From a virus (lineage: Duplodnaviria > Heunggongvirae > Uroviricota > Caudoviricetes), in IMG/VR virus record IMGVR_UViG_2648501669_000014: a DNA stretch of 6,981 nucleotides; one strand, 5' to 3'. Within the stretch, counting starts at the first letter, position 1; each line of letters begins with the position of its first letter. Below, one piece after another: positions 399 through 6,981 of this stretch. The notes under the pieces are model-generated. The model had not been told where the DNA came from. It was given only the letters and a program-made list of their open reading frames with translations, and searched no databases. The position numbers were made by a program, and so were the translations under genes.

Positions 399-818
399 AT
401 GCTAAAAACTAGGCTTATCACCGATTACATCAATTCTTTAATAGGTCAGGAGTTCGTTCAAGGCGAGAATGATTGCAATCTCATTGCATGTAAGATCATC
501 GATATTCTCGCTGGTACTGACCTATATAATTCTCTTTATAAAAAATATTCAACTAAAGAAGAAGGCTTGAAAATCTGCAAAGAATTAAGCGGATATTCAA
601 ACATCCTTCAACCAATAAAGAAACATTTCAAATTAGTCACTGATGATTTACAGGACGGCGACTTACTGGTCACAGCCCACAAATTAGGAAACCGTAATTA
701 TTATTCCGTAGTTCCTCATTATTCCGGTTATGGCCTCGTTGAAGAAGATGGTATCTGGATGACCATTCCTGTTTCAGACATTGACTATGAACAAGTTTAT
801 AGATTCGGGGGTGAATAA
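399..818 (+). CDS. Tail assembly protein K-like NlpC/P60 (C40) cysteine peptidase, 139 aa
   Basis: ATG 399 lies 8 nt after GGAGG (386..390). The product has a D-C-N-L-I catalytic-Cys-like motif near the N-terminus and a later GDLLVTAH/VVPHY region consistent with the NlpC/P60 Cys...His...His order. Stop TAA 816..818 overlaps the next ATG (TAATG). Position before the J-like gene matches lambda K. No JAB/MPN motif present. Confidence 0.75.
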   Translation: MLKTRLITDYINSLIGQEFVQGENDCNLIACKIIDILAGTDLYNSLYKKYSTKEEGLKICKELSGYSNILQPIKKHFKLVTDDLQDGDLLVTAHKLGNRNYYSVVPHYSGYGLVEEDGIWMTIPVSDIDYEQVYRFGGE

Positions 819-3800
819 TGGGATTTGAAATATTGGTAGGCGCGGTGATCGCTGGTGCTTCGGCGGGGATGGCGGCAGCCGCAACATTTTCTGTTATGAC
901 CGCAGTCGCTATCGGTATGGCTGCTGGTGCAATGACCTTGATCGCTTCCACTGTAGGCGCACCAAAAACACCTAAAGTACAAAGCCCAGATAATGCGGTG
1001 ACACTAGGAACATCAAACGATCCGAAGACAGTATTACCCGTTCTTTTCGGTGTTACCCGTACTGGTACAAACTGCGTTTACAAAGCAATTTCTAAAAGAG
1101 AAAACAATAAGTTAGTGCAAATCTTCGCTGTAGCAGAGGGTGAAATCGACCACTACAAAGCACTGTTTATCGATAATAAAAATGTTCTTGTTGGTAAGAA
1201 CATGACGATCCGTGATGGCATTCTCGATAAGGGCAACATTAAAGAAGAATACCGGAAAGTGTTGGAGGTTGAGTTCCGCACGGGTAAGAATCCTAACACC
1301 GCTTTGTCACTGGCAAAACAGCATTTAGGCTCAGACTGGACCGATGCTTACAAGGGTAACGGCATTGCAACCATGTGTATTGTGTTACGTCGTGATGACA
1401 AATCTCTTGCTGCTGGTGTTGATATCCTTCAACCAAATAGCCAAGTGGCAGTCGATGTTATGGGCTTAAAGATTCGTAACCTTGAAACCAATGCTATTGA
1501 GGCTAGCACTAACGGCGTGGACCAGATTTTCCACTACCTAACAAATGAAAAATATGGCTTATCCGTACCAATTGAAAACATTAACGTTGATTCATTCCTG
1601 AAAGTACGTAAGCAAGTACGCCAGATGGATTTGCATTCAAACGGTGCATGTGATCCGAACGCCAGCTTTAAAGAGAACTTAACTAGCCTTATGCAGACTT
1701 TCGGCGGGGTGATGTTCGAATCCTTCGGAAGAATTACCCTGAAACTGGATGCTCCTGATATTGTTAAGCATACCTTCAATGAAGACAATATCATGATGGG
1801 TAAGGTATCACTGAAAACAGGTGGCACTAACGGTTATTTCAATACCATTAACGCGATGTATCAGGAACCATCAATTGACTATTCCGAGCAAATGCTACGT
1901 TATCCGGCTGATGCTGAAAACGATGCTACTATTCGTCAAGATGGTCGAATTATCGCTAAAGATATTGAATATCGTTTTGTTAAGTCTAAAGCCCAGATTG
2001 ATAAACTTGCGAGTGTAGAACGAAATAAATCTCGTATCACTCAGGTTATCAGCTTTATGACTACTGACGCATTCACTGCCGAAGTTTGGGACGTTATCAG
2101 CGTAACCTATGATGAATTGAAACTGAATAATTCACTTTGGCGTATTACCGCAATTGATCGTTCTATTGATTCTGGTATTGCTGGGATGATGACTATCACC
2201 GCTACAGAATATAATTCTCAGGTTTATACTGACCTGAACTATGCGGCAACTCCAGACAATAGACCAAGTGGTTTACCGGATTCAATGACAGTACAGAAGC
2301 CTACTAATTTCAGAATTAAGGCAACTGGCGAGACGATTTACGGTAAAAACGTTACTTTGACATGGGATGCACCGGAAGATTTTAACCGCTACGGCTTCCA
2401 GATTGATTACCGTGTAAGCGGATCACCTAACTGGATTAAGTTGGGACAGACTTCACAGCAAATTTTCAGTGTCAATGCACTGGCAAAAGATCGTTCCTAC
2501 GATTATCGAGTTTGTGCTTTCGGTATCATCGCGCGATCCGATTGGGTAGAACTGGTTAACCAGAATCCTACCGTTACCTATGAATTGCCGACTCCGGTTA
2601 TTCGAATCAAAAATCAGGGTAGCACGCCAGGAACTTTCGAAGGTAATGATCTGATTATCGAATGGGAAAACCAGCAACAATTAGATGTGATGATCAACGG
2701 TGAAACTAACAAGTTTAGTGACCTGTTTGAAGCATACATTATCAAGGTGACTAACAAGGCTGGTAAGTCTATTCAGTACCGTACCCGCGATCCTGAATCA
2801 TGGACTTATACGCTTGATATGAACCAGTTTAACGGCCTTTCGCGTCAACTGACGGTAGAAGTATCAGCTAAGGGCTATAACAACTCAGAGAGCGCCCCAG
2901 CGCGTTTAGTGGCTATCAACCCACAACATAAGCCAATGAAAGGTTTTAGTGCGCGTGGTGGCTTTAATACTGCGTTTGTTAGCTGGGCGGATGACGTAGA
3001 ACATGACTATGCAGGGTCAATCATCCAGTATGCAACCGACAACACTTTCTCAGATGCAAGGGCAGTAAGCACGAATAGTGTTAGCCATACTTCCTTTGAT
3101 ATTGCTGACGGTGATTATTATATCCGTGGTGCTCACTACGATATTTTCGGTATGGATGATGCTGTTTGGTCTGAACCGTATTTCATGCAAATGAAATCTA
3201 CCATTAGCTGGGACGATCAGGACAAAGAAGCACTGGAAGACCTGATTGGTTTACAAGATCGCTTAGATGAAACCATCGCTGATGCTATTGCTCAAGCTGG
3301 CGCTAATGCCGATGCTAAAATTGATGCAATGCATAAGCAAATCACTACCGAGACGGGTAAAACTGTTCAAGCCTCAGCCGATACCTTAAAGAGTCTGATT
3401 GCTTCTGGTGATAAGGCAAGTTCAACTAAGATTGATCAGGTTAAAGCTGAACTGAAAGGCGATATCACCAAAGAAGTTAGCGCCTCCGCTACAACCCTGA
3501 AACAAGCTATTGCTACCAGTGAAGCAGCAAGCGCAAGTAAGATTGACCAAGTTCGGGTAGAAATGGATGGCAAGATTGCTGGTGTGAATCAGGAAGCGGA
3601 CGTTAAGATCGATGCTTTGAAGGGAACCATTAACAGCAAATACAATCTAGCAGTTAATGCAGATGGTCGCGTGGCTGGCATTCACATGAGCGCAACTAAC
3701 GATCCGGCACAACCGACTAAAATCATCTTTACGGCTGATAAAATTGCTGTAGCTCCGCAGAACGGGACCGATGTTTGCCCGTTTGGTATCGAAGGTAACA

Positions 3801-4594
3801 AGGTTTATCTCGATAATGCGATGATTCGTAATGCCTCAATCGGATCAGCACAGATTACTGATGCTAGTATCACCACGGCTAAAATTGGCAATGCTGCGAT
3901 CAATTCAGCGAAAATCCAAGACGGCGCGATCACCAACGCCAAGATTGTAAATGGCGCAATTGATAACGCTAAAATCGGTAACTATATCCAGTCTTCCAAC
4001 TGGAACGGATCTACCGGATGGCATATCAATAAGAACGGTAGTGCTACGTTCATGAACGCTACCGTTAAAGGTAATATCACGGCTGATTCCGGTACTCTGA
4101 ACAACGTCACGATTAACTCTAGCTGTGTTATTAAGGGTATGCTTGAAGCTACTCAGGTTAAGGGTGATTTCGTTAAGGTGATTGGTCGTAAGTTCCCACA
4201 CCGTGATGTTAACGTTGATAATGGTTATGGTGGCTATCCGCAAGGTACAGTAACCGTTCGCGTTGAAGATGATCACAAGTTCGATCGTCAAATCGTTATT
4301 CCGGCAATTAGTTTTGGTGGATTGCGAGCGCGTGAAGGGTCGAACAATAATACCTATTACGACACCTGTCGCCTGATTGTTCGTAAGAATGGGTCAGAGT
4401 TGTATAATAGGGCGTATGGCGGTAATACTGGTCTTTACTCAGGTGTTATTGATATGCCAGCGGGTAAAGGTGCTGTGACCTTGACCTTTGAAGTGCAATC
4501 AAGCGCAATCAACAACTGGACGCCTAGCACATGGATCAGTGATTTAACTGTAATGGTAACTAAAAAAGCTACTACGGGTATTACTGTTTCTTAA
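818..4594 (+). CDS. Central tail fibre / host specificity protein, lambda gpJ family (1258 aa), with a gpI-C-terminal-like hydrophobic N-terminal module
   Basis: Uninterrupted 3777-nt ORF with GGGGG SD at 806..810. The C-terminal ~180 aa are colinear with my recollection of the lambda J C-terminus (SGTLNNVTI, DDHKFDRQIVIP, VIDMPAGKGAVTLTF, VMVTKK...GITVS versus lambda SGTLSNVTI, DDHPFDRQIVVLP, IVDMPAGRGNVILTF, VMVIKK...GISVV). Central FN3-like repeats (about 2260..3200). The first ~95 aa are a Gly/Ala-rich hydrophobic stretch ending in VLPVLFG, resembling the lambda gpI C-terminus (VLPVLYG). Confidence 0.93.
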   Translation: MGFEILVGAVIAGASAGMAAAATFSVMTAVAIGMAAGAMTLIASTVGAPKTPKVQSPDNAVTLGTSNDPKTVLPVLFGVTRTGTNCVYKAISKRENNKLVQIFAVAEGEIDHYKALFIDNKNVLVGKNMTIRDGILDKGNIKEEYRKVLEVEFRTGKNPNTALSLAKQHLGSDWTDAYKGNGIATMCIVLRRDDKSLAAGVDILQPNSQVAVDVMGLKIRNLETNAIEASTNGVDQIFHYLTNEKYGLSVPIENINVDSFLKVRKQVRQMDLHSNGACDPNASFKENLTSLMQTFGGVMFESFGRITLKLDAPDIVKHTFNEDNIMMGKVSLKTGGTNGYFNTINAMYQEPSIDYSEQMLRYPADAENDATIRQDGRIIAKDIEYRFVKSKAQIDKLASVERNKSRITQVISFMTTDAFTAEVWDVISVTYDELKLNNSLWRITAIDRSIDSGIAGMMTITATEYNSQVYTDLNYAATPDNRPSGLPDSMTVQKPTNFRIKATGETIYGKNVTLTWDAPEDFNRYGFQIDYRVSGSPNWIKLGQTSQQIFSVNALAKDRSYDYRVCAFGIIARSDWVELVNQNPTVTYELPTPVIRIKNQGSTPGTFEGNDLIIEWENQQQLDVMINGETNKFSDLFEAYIIKVTNKAGKSIQYRTRDPESWTYTLDMNQFNGLSRQLTVEVSAKGYNNSESAPARLVAINPQHKPMKGFSARGGFNTAFVSWADDVEHDYAGSIIQYATDNTFSDARAVSTNSVSHTSFDIADGDYYIRGAHYDIFGMDDAVWSEPYFMQMKSTISWDDQDKEALEDLIGLQDRLDETIADAIAQAGANADAKIDAMHKQITTETGKTVQASADTLKSLIASGDKASSTKIDQVKAELKGDITKEVSASATTLKQAIATSEAASASKIDQVRVEMDGKIAGVNQEADVKIDALKGTINSKYNLAVNADGRVAGIHMSATNDPAQPTKIIFTADKIAVAPQNGTDVCPFGIEGNKVYLDNAMIRNASIGSAQITDASITTAKIGNAAINSAKIQDGAITNAKIVNGAIDNAKIGNYIQSSNWNGSTGWHINKNGSATFMNATVKGNITADSGTLNNVTINSSCVIKGMLEATQVKGDFVKVIGRKFPHRDVNVDNGYGGYPQGTVTVRVEDDHKFDRQIVIPAISFGGLRAREGSNNNTYYDTCRLIVRKNGSELYNRAYGGNTGLYSGVIDMPAGKGAVTLTFEVQSSAINNWTPSTWISDLTVMVTKKATTGITVS
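3301..3625 (+). repeat. Imperfect periodic repeats (about 111-114 nt, 37-38 aa) encoding a KID-x-[VA] motif-bearing, Ala/Ser/Thr/Lys-rich, probably helical segment of the J-like protein
   Basis: AKIDAM (about 3313), TKIDQV (about 3428), SKIDQV (about 3539) and VKIDAL (about 3604) recur with similar flanking ...SA.TLK..IA.S context. The DNA pair actaagattgatcaggtt / agtaagattgaccaagtt is visible directly. Confidence 0.6.
3818..3982 (+). repeat. In-frame tandem 30-nt repeats (5-6 copies) encoding a 10-aa unit A-K-I-x-[ND]-[AG]-A-I-x-x inside the J-like gene
   Basis: Translation reads ...AMIRNASIGS AQITDASITT AKIGNAAINS AKIQDGAITN AKIVNGAIDN AKIGNY... with codon boundaries at 3818, 3848, 3878, 3908, 3938, 3968. 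Confidence 0.85.
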
Positions 4595-4612: not shown

Positions 4613-4655
4613 TAATCCCGCTTAATTCTTTTGAGTTAGGCGGGATTATTTTTAT
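4613..4655 (+). terminator. Rho-independent terminator downstream of the J-like gene
   Basis: taatcccgc (4613..4621) pairs with gcgggatta (4640..4648); the stem extends by U-G/A-T pairs to about 13 bp with a roughly 10-nt loop. Followed by TTTTTAT (4649..4655). Lies 19 nt after the J stop. Confidence 0.8.
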
Positions 4656-4698
4656 CTAAATAATTCTGCCATGAAATTATAAAAATATCGGGGGCGTA

Positions 4699-4977
4699 AT
4701 GACTGAAATTATATATGGCGGTATCGGTGTTATCGCCTTAATTTGCGGTGGTCTTTGGAGACTTCACCGAAATCAATTAGCAACTGAAAATAGGTTATCT
4801 AAATTGGAATCCAGCGACGCATTGTTAAACCAGAAGTTTGAGACGATGCAGAATAACCATACTCAGATTGCTGAACGTGTTTACCAAATGGAACAAACAC
4901 TACACGGTATAGAGAAGAAAGTGGTTGCGATGGATGCTAAATTTGACCAAGTTCTCGACATACTCAAACAAAAATAA
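4699..4977 (+). CDS. Small membrane-anchored protein, 92 aa: N-terminal TM helix plus C-terminal predicted coiled coil; function unknown
   Basis: ATG 4699 is preceded by GGGGG (4690..4694). Residues 4-20 (IIYGGIGVIALICGGLW) are hydrophobic and followed by RLHR, which by the positive-inside rule puts the C-terminus in the cytoplasm. The remainder is heptad-like and charged (LSKLESSDALLNQKFETMQ...). Confidence 0.7.
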   Translation: MTEIIYGGIGVIALICGGLWRLHRNQLATENRLSKLESSDALLNQKFETMQNNHTQIAERVYQMEQTLHGIEKKVVAMDAKFDQVLDILKQK

Positions 4978-4995
4978 TAATAAAGGGGTGAATAT

Positions 4996-5166
4996 ATGAA
5001 GAATAAACTTAAGAAATATTTTGGTTATCTCTTGATTGTCGCCCTCACTTATAACGTAGCTATTAGACCTCTGCTAACGTCCTTTGGGCTTGAACTCCCG
5101 GCTATGACCGTGGATGAACAATTGCTAAGGACACTGGCGGGGGTCTTTTCGTTATTAGGGGGCTAA
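4996..5166 (+). CDS. Small hydrophobic protein, 56 aa (not in the supplied ORF track); function unknown
   Basis: ATG 4996 lies 7 nt after AAAGGGG (4982..4988). My translation is MKNKLKKYFGYLLIVALTYNVAIRPLLTSFGLELPAMTVDEQLLRTLAGVFSLLGG, ending TAA 5164..5166. Basic N-terminus then a hydrophobic helix; no Cys, so not a lipoprotein. Stop is 1 nt before the next ATG. Confidence 0.5.
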   Translation: MKNKLKKYFGYLLIVALTYNVAIRPLLTSFGLELPAMTVDEQLLRTLAGVFSLLGG

Positions 5167-5167
5167 C

Positions 5168-5851
5168 ATGGCAACCAGTACCAATAAACGAAACGCTCTA
5201 AGGACTAAGAAAGCGTTACGGCAATGGTCTGAAAAGGCAACCGATACATTCGAAAGGGCACTAGGGGAAGGGGCGATCTTTGCTTCCAGAGCACTCCAGA
5301 AGAAGATTAACAAGAATGTTGATAGACCTACTCGATGGACTCAACAAGCTGTAGGTAATACCAACTACAAGAACCGATCAGGGACGAGACACCAAATCTT
5401 CATCAAGGGCGCAAGGGATAAGGACAAGAAGATCGGCAGTCAGGATGACTATCTGAAACACTATTTCGATGGTGGCAAAATCAATAAGCTAGTGCCAATC
5501 GCTAACGGTAAGGTCTTAGACGCCCACGGGAACATTAAGGCCATCAAAGGCGGTAAGATGATGCGTAACATCGAAAACGGCAACTTCATCAAGGTAGAAA
5601 ACAAGGAAGGAACTTTTATCATGAAGAAGTACAAGCCTAAGAAATCCCGAACCAAACGCGCTAGGAATGGATCGGCGGTGGCAAAACGTCGCTTAGAGAA
5701 ACGCATCCAGAAACAGAGTAAGCGAATTGTTGCCGTTAAGTCGGATAAAATTTCTACTCGTTATTCGACGCTAGGATCGTGGGAAAGCAACGAGGAAATG
5801 ATGCTTAAGAACATTAATAAGCACATTAAATCGCGCATGAGATACGTTTAA
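5168..5851 (+). CDS. Highly basic Lys/Arg-rich protein, 227 aa; function unknown (candidate nucleic-acid-binding or injected protein)
   Basis: ATG 5168 is preceded by GGGGG (5157..5161). Hand count is about 36 K and 21 R against about 19 D+E, so strongly net positive. No motif I recognise. The antisense ORF 5461..5706 is rejected. Confidence 0.75.
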   Translation: MATSTNKRNALRTKKALRQWSEKATDTFERALGEGAIFASRALQKKINKNVDRPTRWTQQAVGNTNYKNRSGTRHQIFIKGARDKDKKIGSQDDYLKHYFDGGKINKLVPIANGKVLDAHGNIKAIKGGKMMRNIENGNFIKVENKEGTFIMKKYKPKKSRTKRARNGSAVAKRRLEKRIQKQSKRIVAVKSDKISTRYSTLGSWESNEEMMLKNINKHIKSRMRYV

Positions 5852-5861
5852 TCCATAAATA

Positions 5862-5883
5862 CCCTCATAGAATCTTATGGGGG
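5862..5883 (+). promoter_or_regulatory. Intergenic stem-loop that pairs with the SD of the 5890 gene (possible translational control or RNA-stability element)
   Basis: ccctcata (5862..5869) pairs with tatggggg (5876..5883), 8 bp including one U-G, loop gaatct. The right arm contains the GGGGG SD (5879..5883) 6 nt before ATG 5890. No U-tract follows, so it is not a typical terminator. Confidence 0.35.
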
Positions 5884-5889
5884 TATAAC

Positions 5890-6237
5890 ATGGCTAAAAA
5901 TATTTTCACTGAATTTCCTACTTATCCGGTCGATCAGCTTTCCGGTATTTTTATTAATGGCATTAGTCCAGAATCAATGACTTATGATTTTGAGGCGAAG
6001 AGAGTTAAACATAAACAATATAAAGAATGTATCCGCGATCATGAAAAAGGGACCGTGTTTTGTGTCGCTACATTGGCTAAACGTCCTAAGTATCGTTTTC
6101 GTGTCGGGCAAGAAGTCGATGTAGTTAATCCTTATAGTTTTAACTGTCTGGGTGATGCACGCGCGGTGTGTGTAGGCACAACTAATTACTACATTAAAGG
6201 ACTCAGATTTACCGGGTATATAATGGAATACATCTAA
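5890..6237 (+). CDS. Hypothetical protein, 115 aa; function unknown
   Basis: ATG 5890 with GGGGG SD. Last gene before the second terminator. The overlapping antisense ORF 5974..6318 lacks supporting signals. Confidence 0.65.
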   Translation: MAKNIFTEFPTYPVDQLSGIFINGISPESMTYDFEAKRVKHKQYKECIRDHEKGTVFCVATLAKRPKYRFRVGQEVDVVNPYSFNCLGDARAVCVGTTNYYIKGLRFTGYIMEYI

Positions 6238-6289: not shown

Positions 6290-6739
6290 ATGGAGATTTT
6301 ATTTGCTGAATATATCAACTACACCGGATTTACAAGAAAAACGCCTCTTGACTATGAACCTATTGCCATTAAACGTTGTGATGAGTTGGGGTACATCTAT
6401 AACGGTTTTGTTGTGCCGTGGAAAGGGCAACATACACCCGTTTCTATAACCTGCAAGAAACATAGCACAACGCGAACAATTGCTTTCAAAACTCTTAAAA
6501 AACAAGGTGCGTGTCTTGAATGCTATAAAGAATCATTAAAACTTCCTAAGAAAAAGAATAGAGATAAGGAAGCTGTATTAGATAAAGCAAGCAATGTGCT
6601 GGAACGCAAAGATATGGTTTTAGTTGGATTGTTAGAAGATTATAAAGGATTAGACACAAAAGTTTCTTATAAGTGCAATTGCTGTGATACTGCATACGAA
6701 ACCATAATCACTAGAATCATAAACGATGATGCTGGGTAG
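6290..6739 (+). CDS. Cys-rich protein with two tandem zinc-ribbon-like modules (at least 149 aa); 3' end interrupted by IS2, likely C-terminally truncated
   Basis: ATG 6290 lies 5 nt after GGAGG. Contains C-x2-H-x16-C-x2-C (CKKH...CLEC) and a second related module (VSITC... / VSYKCNCC...). The terminal TAG (6737..6739) is the first 3 nt of the IS2 left end, so the native C-terminus is missing. Confidence 0.7.
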   Translation: MEILFAEYINYTGFTRKTPLDYEPIAIKRCDELGYIYNGFVVPWKGQHTPVSITCKKHSTTRTIAFKTLKKQGACLECYKESLKLPKKKNRDKEAVLDKASNVLERKDMVLVGLLEDYKGLDTKVSYKCNCCDTAYETIITRIINDDAG

Positions 6740-6981
6740 ACTGGCCCCCTGAATCTCCAGACAACCAGTATCACTTAAATAAGTGATAGTCTTAATACTA
6801 GTTTTTAGACTAGTCATTGGAGAACAGATGATTGATGTCTTAGGGCCGGAGAAACGCAGACGGCGTACCACACAGGAAAAGATCGCAATTGTTCAGCAGA
6901 GCTTTGAACCGGGGATGACGGTCTCCCTCGTTGCCCGGCAACATGGTGTAGCAGCCAGCCAGTTAAGTCGCTGGCCTACAC
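6737..6981 (+). mobile_element. IS2 (IS3 family) insertion sequence, left end; continues beyond the window
   Basis: Sequence from 6737 (TAGACTGGCCCCCTGAATCTCCAGACAACCAGTATCACTTAAATAAGTGATAGTC...) matches my recollection of the IS2 left terminus and leader. It is followed by the insC start. The left terminal inverted repeat is about the first 41 bp (6737..6777). Confidence 0.9.
6828..6981 (+). CDS. insC: IS2 transposase OrfA (InsC), 5' portion; 3' end outside the window
   Basis: Translation [46 protein letters not shown]... matches remembered IS2 InsC. ATG 6828 is preceded by GGAGAA. Confidence 0.9.

Follow-up and report, generated by a model that had tools for sequence, protein, structure and literature searches.

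A naturally exchanged lambda-type receptor-binding tip on an apparently non-lambdoid tail-tip protein of an Escherichia coli prophage

Introduction

In phage lambda, the four bottom loops (L1-L4) of the immunoglobulin (Ig)-like receptor-binding domain (RBD) of protein J (gpJ) insert into LamB, and opening of the RBD is propagated up the fibre (PMC11101478). LamB is likewise the receptor of Phi21, in which one J mutation adds OmpC to LamB use, and after experimental evolution Phi21 uses OmpC and OmpF, and lambda uses OmpF (PMC11336670). The A8 gpJ C-terminus, a natural J tip of a lambdoid prophage (natural form P0142) that was fused to lambda gpJ (Brodel et al. 2024, PMC11338833), uses OmpC, as does 1A2; this was established by delivery assays in lamB and ompC deletion strains (PMC11338833). 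Among non-lambdoid temperate coliphages, the mEpimmI group carries variable J C-termini that are LamB- or OmpA-dependent (PMC11893012), and the distal domains of Drexlerviridae GpJ proteins recognize LamB, TolC, or NupG (bioRxiv 10.64898/2026.04.02.716166). Here, a 6,981-nucleotide stretch of DNA from a virus of the Caudoviricetes (IMG/VR record IMGVR_UViG_2648501669_000014; hereafter the window, numbered from its first letter) is examined for the J-like gene that it carries (818..4594, + strand), the 3' end of which encodes a lambda-type RBD. The window is part of an E. coli chromosomal prophage and is 100% identical to the sequence of pig isolate HCP5S3_I4.

The C-terminal domain is a lambda-type receptor-binding domain

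The tail-tip, or central tail fibre, gene is the sole long open reading frame (ORF) in the window. It is intact over 1258 codons and has a J-like architecture, and its product of 1258 amino acids (aa), named 'phage tail tip domain-containing protein' in RefSeq (WP_032083279.1), matches tail-fibre families in both Pfam and PHROG. Positions 3983-4594 constitute the 3' end of the ORF, that is, aa 1056-1258 plus the stop codon. The initial annotation held that these last ~200 aa keep the C-terminal framework of lambda J, and comparisons of profile, sequence, and fold confirm, far beyond chance, that the C-terminal domain is a genuine lambda-J-type RBD. Pfam family PF12421 (Ig_GpJ_C), described by Pfam as 'Tip attachment protein J, C-terminal receptor binding domain', matches aa 1124-1258 at E=7.4e-34 with 117.2 bits against a cut-off of 26.2, covering positions 3-135 of the 135 in the profile. 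When the protein was compared with PDB sequences using phmmer, aa 1067-1258 aligned to lambda gpJ 946-1131 (E=7e-35, 123-127 bits) and the best match was to 'A8 gpJ 713' (E=7e-54, 186 bits). An AlphaFold2 model of aa 1056-1258, computed as a monomer from 39 homologous sequences with a mean predicted local distance difference test score (pLDDT) of 81, is a beta-sandwich. The top four PDB structures retrieved with this model by Foldseek were A8 gpJ in closed form (9wca), the lambda fibre in closed form (8xck), A8 gpJ in open form with OmpC (9wcb), and the lambda fibre in open form with LamB (8xcj). These four matches have E values of 1e-17 to 4e-17 and query-normalised template modelling (TM) scores of 0.62-0.63, and the fifth match follows at 2e-4.

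The domain lies at the extreme C-terminus, as it does in lambda gpJ (8xck, 8xcj; Ge and Wang 2024, PMC11101478), where it also comes after a Phage_Tail_Tip domain and a beta-prism. In the window protein the Phage_Tail_Tip segment (PF09327; 3608..3901, + strand; aa 931-1028; Pfam E=7e-21) covers the coiled-coil to beta-prism transition; this segment is common to many J-like proteins, and PDB sequence matches to T1, F2-pyocin, and other J-like fibres fall within aa 830-1046. It is followed in the prism region by five decapeptide repeats of the form xxA[S/A]IxxAKI (3827..3976, + strand; aa 1004-1053), which are extra relative to lambda gpJ and appear as a gap in alignments with lambdoid J proteins that lack them. 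Since Tandem Repeats Finder (TRF) detected no tandem repeat in the DNA underlying them, these repeats are old and have diverged at the nucleotide level. Next comes a prism-base sub-module (4016..4162, + strand; aa 1067-1115), identified by HMMER alignment as homologous to lambda gpJ 946-994 and 39% identical to lambda and 47% identical to A8. The Ig-like RBD itself, here termed allele alpha, then extends to the stop codon (4163..4591, + strand; aa 1116-1258), as delimited by Pfam, AlphaFold2, and Foldseek. The span of 3983-4594 first proposed for the domain is thus about right, with the qualification that homology to lambda begins at 4016 and the Ig domain at ~4163-4187, and that the cassette exchanged in nature (see below) starts at ~3850.

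Divergence is concentrated in four loops

Across prism base and RBD together, the window protein is 41% identical to lambda J (190 aa) and 48% identical to A8 (192 aa), and tblastn comparison of the RBD with phage records gave 41% for lambda, 46% for lambda h434, and 56.6% for the best record. This identity is unevenly distributed. The RBD framework is 54% identical to lambda J, 62% to A8, and 85% to the sister allele of prophage L002, as compared with 16% (9/57), 27%, and 23%, respectively, for the four loops. In the same columns, A8 and lambda, which use different receptors, are 53% identical in the framework and 23% identical in the loops. The earlier description of a retained framework with many differences in between is therefore true by the numbers. 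When conservation was mapped on the predicted strands, the differences and all indels fell within four inter-strand segments (aa 1128-1142, 1164-1182, 1199-1206, and 1226-1239), and the strands were kept, as were the alternate short turns DDHxFDRQ, NG, and VIDMPAGxG. Alignment with A8 runs end to end through prism base and RBD (aa 1067-1258), A8 being the best match in both sequence and structure (Foldseek E=1.3e-17), and retains the motifs SGTLNNVTIN, DDxKFDRQ, VIDMPAGxG, and SDLxVxVxKK.

Loop segment 1 (4199..4243, + strand; aa 1128-1142, HRDVNVDNGYGGYPQ) lies between predicted strands in columns of low conservation and is identical to A8 and to lambda at 1/15 positions each. It is the longest among the seven proteins compared (window, L003, L005, L002, P0001, A8, and lambda J), with an insertion of 4-8 residues relative to lambda J, A8, and the beta alleles introduced below; relative to A8 it is 8 residues longer. 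Loop segment 2 (4307..4363, + strand; aa 1164-1182, ISFGGLRAREGSNNNTYYD) contains indels and shares 5/22 positions with A8 and 4/22 with lambda, and loop segment 3 (4412..4435, + strand; aa 1199-1206, AYGGNTGL) shares 1/8 with A8, 1/8 with lambda, and 0/8 with the beta alleles. Loop segment 4 (4493..4534, + strand; aa 1226-1239, VQSSAINNWTPSTW) is the only one that resembles A8, with 9/15 identical positions including an NNWTP motif, as against 3/15 for lambda; loops 1-3 are unlike both. From the alternation of strands and the published description of the homologous lambda domain, the four variable segments would correspond to the distal loops L1-L4 of lambda. With the segments so assigned, the receptor-contacting loops of lambda are not conserved in the window protein, with 9/57 positions identical and indels in L1, L2, and L4. 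That this region sets LamB binding in lambda, as stated in the initial annotation, is upheld by the work on its four distal loops (PMC11101478).

The carrier is not a lambda J orthologue

The label of a diverged lambda J had to be abandoned for the gene as a whole, since significant similarity to lambda J is lacking over its first ~850 aa. Matches to lambdoid J proteins are confined to ~aa 845-1258 and are strong only from aa 1067: tblastn matches start at ~aa 845-898, and phmmer against PDB sequences aligns lambda gpJ only to aa 1067-1258, apart from an insignificant stretch at 951-1006. The Pfam family Phage-tail_3 reached 19.8 bits, under its cut-off of 23, and full-length homology to lambda J that would include the N-terminal hub domains was not apparent in these comparisons. 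Instead, the similarity of aa 29-1119 is to a protein from Escherichia phage DCP80 (XNX25186.1, 1252 aa; 40% identity) and to J-like proteins of ~100-kb Vibrio phages (e.g., henriette 12B8; ~23% identity), with which the window protein has its backbone in common. Similarity to the DCP80 protein includes the decapeptide repeats, which are present in its translation, and the prism up to '...IEGDIV', and the gene order is colinear; however, the last ~130 aa of the DCP80 protein form an unrelated domain with no Pfam match, and a lambda-type RBD is absent. The terminase of the window prophage is 43% identical to that of DCP80 and at most 31% identical to any other among the matches listed. The genes upstream of J comprise one for the tape measure, one whose product has a baseplate-hub domain at its N-terminus (Pfam PF09931, annotated as DUF2163 in related prophages), and, directly adjacent to J, a DUF6950 gene (399..818, + strand; Pfam DUF6950 E=5.5e-12), unlike the L-K-I genes found upstream of J in lambda. 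The DUF6950 protein (WP_000921235.1) is identical in L001, L003, L004, L005, and L007 and belongs to a conserved tail-tip module. A lambda-type tip thus appears, by sequence comparison, to be carried on a non-lambdoid tail-tip protein, whereas the carrier of the A8/P0142 tip is lambdoid.

A conserved J-like backbone with a variable C-terminal tip that tracks the receptor is a feature in common with the mEpimmI and Drexlerviridae phages. These are nevertheless other phage groups, and neither was found among the listed matches for the window DNA or the J protein; membership in the mEpimmI group was considered and rejected because no mEpimmI genome was among the listed DNA or protein matches. The LamB-binding tips of Drexlerviridae have little or no homology to that of lambda (bioRxiv 10.64898/2026.04.02.716166), whereas the window tip is a true lambda-type Ig RBD. 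Moreover, a hypervariable receptor-binding protein (RBP) locus follows gpJ in Drexlerviridae, whereas the genes that follow J here are conserved across J alleles, with DNA identity of 74-100% throughout.

It should be noted that the DCP80 genome is a 141-kb record (PQ671644.1; L008) filed under Straboviridae/Gaprivervirus that starts with a siphophage-like structural module (terminase 1854-3611, J-like gene 18679-22437), colinear with the ~35-kb prophage type. The record could have been misclassified, or its assembly could be chimeric.

Natural exchange of the tip as a cassette

Comparison of J across six related prophages in 50-aa protein bins revealed that the first ~1000 aa are 86-100% identical per bin, mostly at least 90%, and that the last ~250 aa split into distinct alleles, the protein bins agreeing with those computed from DNA. 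In 50-nt bins, DNA identity between the window and L002, L005, and L006 is 32-88% from ~3850 to ~4599 and 94-100% from 4600, right after the J stop codon. The polymorphic stretch (3850..4594, + strand) therefore lies between otherwise 90-100% identical tail-tip modules. A terminator-like hairpin with a 16-bp stem (inverted repeat I4; 4613-4648) and a T-run (together 4613..4658, + strand), detected in a consensus scan 19 nt past the J stop codon, sits just outside the 3' edge of this cassette.

Within the cassette, the prism base and the RBD assort independently. Two types of prism base are found that are 57-63% identical to each other: type 1 in the window, L003, P0001, and L033, and type 2 in L002, L005, and L025. 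The RBD occurs as alpha, which includes a ~82% identical variant alpha', and as beta, which is 57-61% identical to alpha. Among complete genomes and IMG/VR contigs, all four combinations of prism base and RBD are present on the same backbone, namely 1-alpha in the window, 2-alpha' in L005 and L025, 1-beta in L033 and P0001, and 2-beta in L002. The natural junctions are near position 3850 of the window and near aa ~1116-1129 ('GDFVK').

Nonsynonymous (dN) and synonymous (dS) divergence was estimated by the Nei-Gojobori method for the window against L005 (alpha') and L002 (beta), the same-allele relative L003 being much closer. In the backbone dS is 0.20-0.33; between cassette alleles it is 0.9-3.3, that is, saturated. 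This disparity indicates that the alleles are much older than the backbones that carry them and were imported by recombination rather than having drifted from lambda. The RBD framework is under strong purifying selection (dN/dS 0.07-0.08), and amino acid change is concentrated in the loops; for the window against L002, dN is 0.13 in the framework and 0.80 in the loops. A dN/dS ratio above 1 in the loops is not demonstrable due to saturation of loop dS, and so the claim made here is one of raised dN, not of formal positive selection. A diversity-generating retroelement (DGR) or template-repeat origin of the loop variation was also considered and rejected: the C-terminal region is not directly repeated anywhere in the window, the annotation of the 46.7-kb prophage region includes no reverse transcriptase, and the variation among alleles includes indels and saturated synonymous change.

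The alpha allele is conserved and distinct

The window prophage was identified in 57 of 5426 complete genomes and was always chromosomal. With 97-100% conservation, the alpha allele recurs in ~17-20 complete E. coli genomes and in 18 IMG/VR contigs. Among the IMG/VR records, alpha and alpha' are found solely on the backbone of the window, and matches of 50% are carried on a different J of ~1114 aa. A scan of species-representative genomes, with one genome per species, did not recover the allele from other species, and the only DNA match to isolated phages or plasmids was the end of an insertion sequence (IS), IS2; close relatives were not detected among them. No RBD at least 60% identical was found in 50,697 phage records, the best being the 56.6% match given above. 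A word-indexed protein search returned mostly short fragments and missed full-length relatives, and an exhaustive search of representatives together with IMG/VR was used instead; of 1.84 billion cluster representatives, 114 proteins matched the domain (E up to 1e-3), the best of them at 58% over the full RBD. Pairwise alignment with J proteins of known specificity, which had been proposed as a check, likewise returned no high identity to a receptor-typed variant (A8 48%, lambda 41%).

Receptor of the alpha allele and rival explanations

By homology with the lambda-LamB and A8-OmpC complexes, the distal tip of the central tail fibre would consist of the last trimeric beta-prism turns (aa 1067-1115) and three copies of the Ig-like RBD (aa 1116-1258), with four distal loops per subunit that are pushed into an outer-membrane protein. 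The base of the RBDs would then spread, and this change would travel up along the prism and open the tail tip so that DNA can be ejected. In such a tip, the conserved motifs under strong purifying selection (DDHxFDRQ, NG, VIDMPAGxG, and SDLxVxVxKK) are presumed to face the prism proximally and the replaced segments to form the distal loops. Old and deeply diverged alleles of prism base and RBD are shuffled by recombination on a near-constant backbone. All members of this RBD family with a known receptor bind a trimeric porin (LamB, OmpC, or OmpF). Because a three-fold tip would dock on a three-fold porin and all typed members use porins, the receptor of the alpha allele is most probably a trimeric porin. 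It had been suggested at the outset that the divergence points to a different outer-membrane receptor or to a distinct LamB allele specificity. The first part of this suggestion is a reasonable inference, given loops that differ almost wholly from those of lambda (16% identity, with indels), and the alpha allele likely has its own specificity and a binding mode unlike that of lambda on LamB; the nearest typed relative, A8 (48%), binds OmpC rather than LamB. As a whole, we regard it as highly probable that the window encodes an exchangeable lambda-type tip with its own specificity and a porin receptor, on a non-lambdoid tail-tip protein.

Several points weigh against this reading. A receptor is not assignable from sequence because identity to typed relatives is 41-48% and single mutations switch porin use in Phi21. 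Beyond porins, the J protein of Gifsy-1, which may or may not carry this RBD type, is reported to bind OmpX and BtuB besides OmpC (PMC12312913), and a non-porin receptor is conceivable. The end of the sandwich that the variable segments face is taken from strand alternation and the description of lambda rather than from coordinates, and a trimer is assumed at the fibre tip although the AlphaFold2 model is of a monomer. The side fibre and the Gp38_N-domain protein described below may dominate host range. Finally, the prophage of HCP5S3_I4 is probably defective, with IS2 in its capsid gene, so that this copy of J may now be unused.

The identity of the porin bears on two rival explanations. OmpC is the best single guess, A8 being nearer than lambda both overall and in loop 4, but it is a weak one given that loops 1-3 are novel and one mutation adds OmpC in Phi21. 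That the alpha RBD binds OmpC in the manner of the A8, 1A2, and 434-type J C-termini, perhaps tuned to OmpC alleles, is a tentative possibility. A8 gpJ is the best sequence match among solved structures (186 bits versus 123-127 for lambda), is seen on OmpC in 9wcb, and depends on OmpC in experiments (PMC11338833), and OmpC is polymorphic in E. coli, with 76 variants in 525 genomes (PMC11338833), which could drive allele diversity. Nevertheless, the resemblance of loop 4 to A8 does not extend to loops 1-3 (1/15, 5/22, and 1/8), and overall identity is just 48%. A literature search found no publication on the A8-OmpC structures 9wca and 9wcb. It is unlikely that the alpha RBD still binds LamB through other contact residues or is tuned to a particular LamB allele. 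Such binding would agree with a fold and family that are the same as those of the LamB-binding RBD of lambda, and LamB is used by quite different non-lambdoid J-type tips in mEpimmI phages (PMC11893012) and in Drexlerviridae GpJ C-termini (bioRxiv 10.64898/2026.04.02.716166), but the loops are just 16% identical to those of lambda, three of the four containing indels, and the domain is closer to the OmpC-binding A8 in framework, in loops, and above all in loop 4. Unlikely, too, is that the alpha RBD recognizes a receptor other than LamB, OmpC, or OmpF, be it another porin or a non-porin, with the separately shuffled prism base tuning the coupling of binding to opening. Were this true, specificity and trigger could be exchanged independently of each other, the family would have a wider receptor repertoire, and new parts would be available for lambda-based delivery particles.

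Two further explanations concern whether the tip matters at all. Besides J, the prophage codes for a fibre of 1202 aa that contains Gp34_trimer and Peptidase_S74 chaperone domains, for a protein of 168 aa bearing the Gp38 adhesin N-terminal domain (Gp38_N), and for a lambda-like tail tube protein; in related prophages the fibres are 30-55% identical and the Gp38_N gene is absent. Host range could therefore be set mainly by the side fibre and the Gp38-like protein, with the J tip a generic ejection trigger whose polymorphism has little effect, and the fibre locus indeed varies even more than J across the lineage. Side fibres strongly aid adsorption in Ur-lambda (PMC11338833) and, reportedly, in Gifsy-1 (PMC12312913). 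However, the pattern in J is the signature of pressure on specificity, with old alleles kept, divergence in loops, a constrained framework, and sharp boundaries, and the contact of lambda J with its receptor is decisive and irreversible even when side fibres are present (PMC11338833, PMC11101478); we consider it improbable that the side fibre accounts for host range in place of J. The question raised by the initial annotation, whether separate side tail fibres set host range, is answered in part: a second candidate determinant is present, but its presence alone does not make it the determinant in place of J. By analogy with Ur-lambda, the phage probably uses two recognition devices. The remaining alternative, that the domain is a decaying remnant in a defective prophage that has diverged by neutral drift, is effectively refuted. 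The prophage does carry two copies of IS2, one of which splits the capsid gene, as well as IS1 and IS5; yet the 1258-codon ORF is intact, the alpha allele is conserved to the degree given above across complete genomes and contigs, framework dN/dS is 0.00-0.08, and divergence ends exactly at the stop codon.

Prophage context

The side-fibre locus (L001 11090-15906; L009 3351-8351; L010 3827-7820) is highly variable among prophages whose tail-tip modules are 90-100% identical, with fibres of 1144-1202 aa. The gene with the Gp38_N domain, located between the tail-tube and chaperone genes, was observed in the strain of the window only; in strain PK8568 the fibre is followed by three small ORFs instead. 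Capsid proteins of prophages that share the tail-tip module are just 37% identical, indicative of strong module-level mosaicism. Upstream of the window (L001 5889-9279), the second IS2 splits the major capsid gene into an N-terminal piece (5889-6122) and the rest (7411-9279), and IS1 and IS5 are near the serine recombinase of the same prophage. Strain PK8568 has an inserted NUMOD3-domain, homing-endonuclease-like gene (L002 1600-2370), which separates the hub gene from the DUF6950 gene; neither the window nor the other relatives carry it.

Between J and the endolysin gene, the window contains four conserved ORFs (4699-6237), none of which belongs with confidence to a family. The product of the first, 92 aa long, has a hydrophobic segment near its N-terminus and a coiled coil; this ORF is polymorphic around 4800-4900, and the annotated protein is identical in L001, L002, L006, and L007. 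The remaining three encode a hydrophobic 56-aa protein, which is identical in all annotated relatives except L005 (where it is not annotated), a very basic 227-aa protein with a weak match to the PHROG 'minor tail protein' (E=5e-4), and a 115-aa protein. The last part of the window (6735-6981) is the end of an IS2 copy that is 95-99% identical to IS2 elsewhere and truncates an ORF (6290-6739) that contains a CapR homology domain and matches an endonuclease-like PHROG. ETEC4090 has this ORF intact (1038 bp) and most related prophages lack it, which suggests a mobile element of endonuclease type inserted between the tail genes and the endolysin gene. Two further candidate features in the region of the tip were rejected. 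An antisense ORF (3905-4291, 128 aa) has no family match and is considered spurious, and an inverted repeat (4012-4032 / 4446-4466) is at chance level, with 14 of 100 shuffled sequences as good, and is not conserved in other alleles.

Significance

Lambda-type J tips, such as those of A8 and 1A2, are the parts that are swapped to retarget lambda-derived DNA-delivery particles (Brodel et al. 2024, PMC11338833), and they also serve as a model for viral receptor change. The arrangement described here is an ordinary new allele in this established family, and its value is that of a candidate new specificity and a clean natural case of two-level module shuffling rather than of a new mechanism. To the family it adds a well-delimited and naturally portable allele with a compatible framework and with three of four putative contact loops new, and the sister allele on the same backbone carries yet other loops. 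Further, the natural junctions show where such tips get exchanged, even across unrelated phage backbones.

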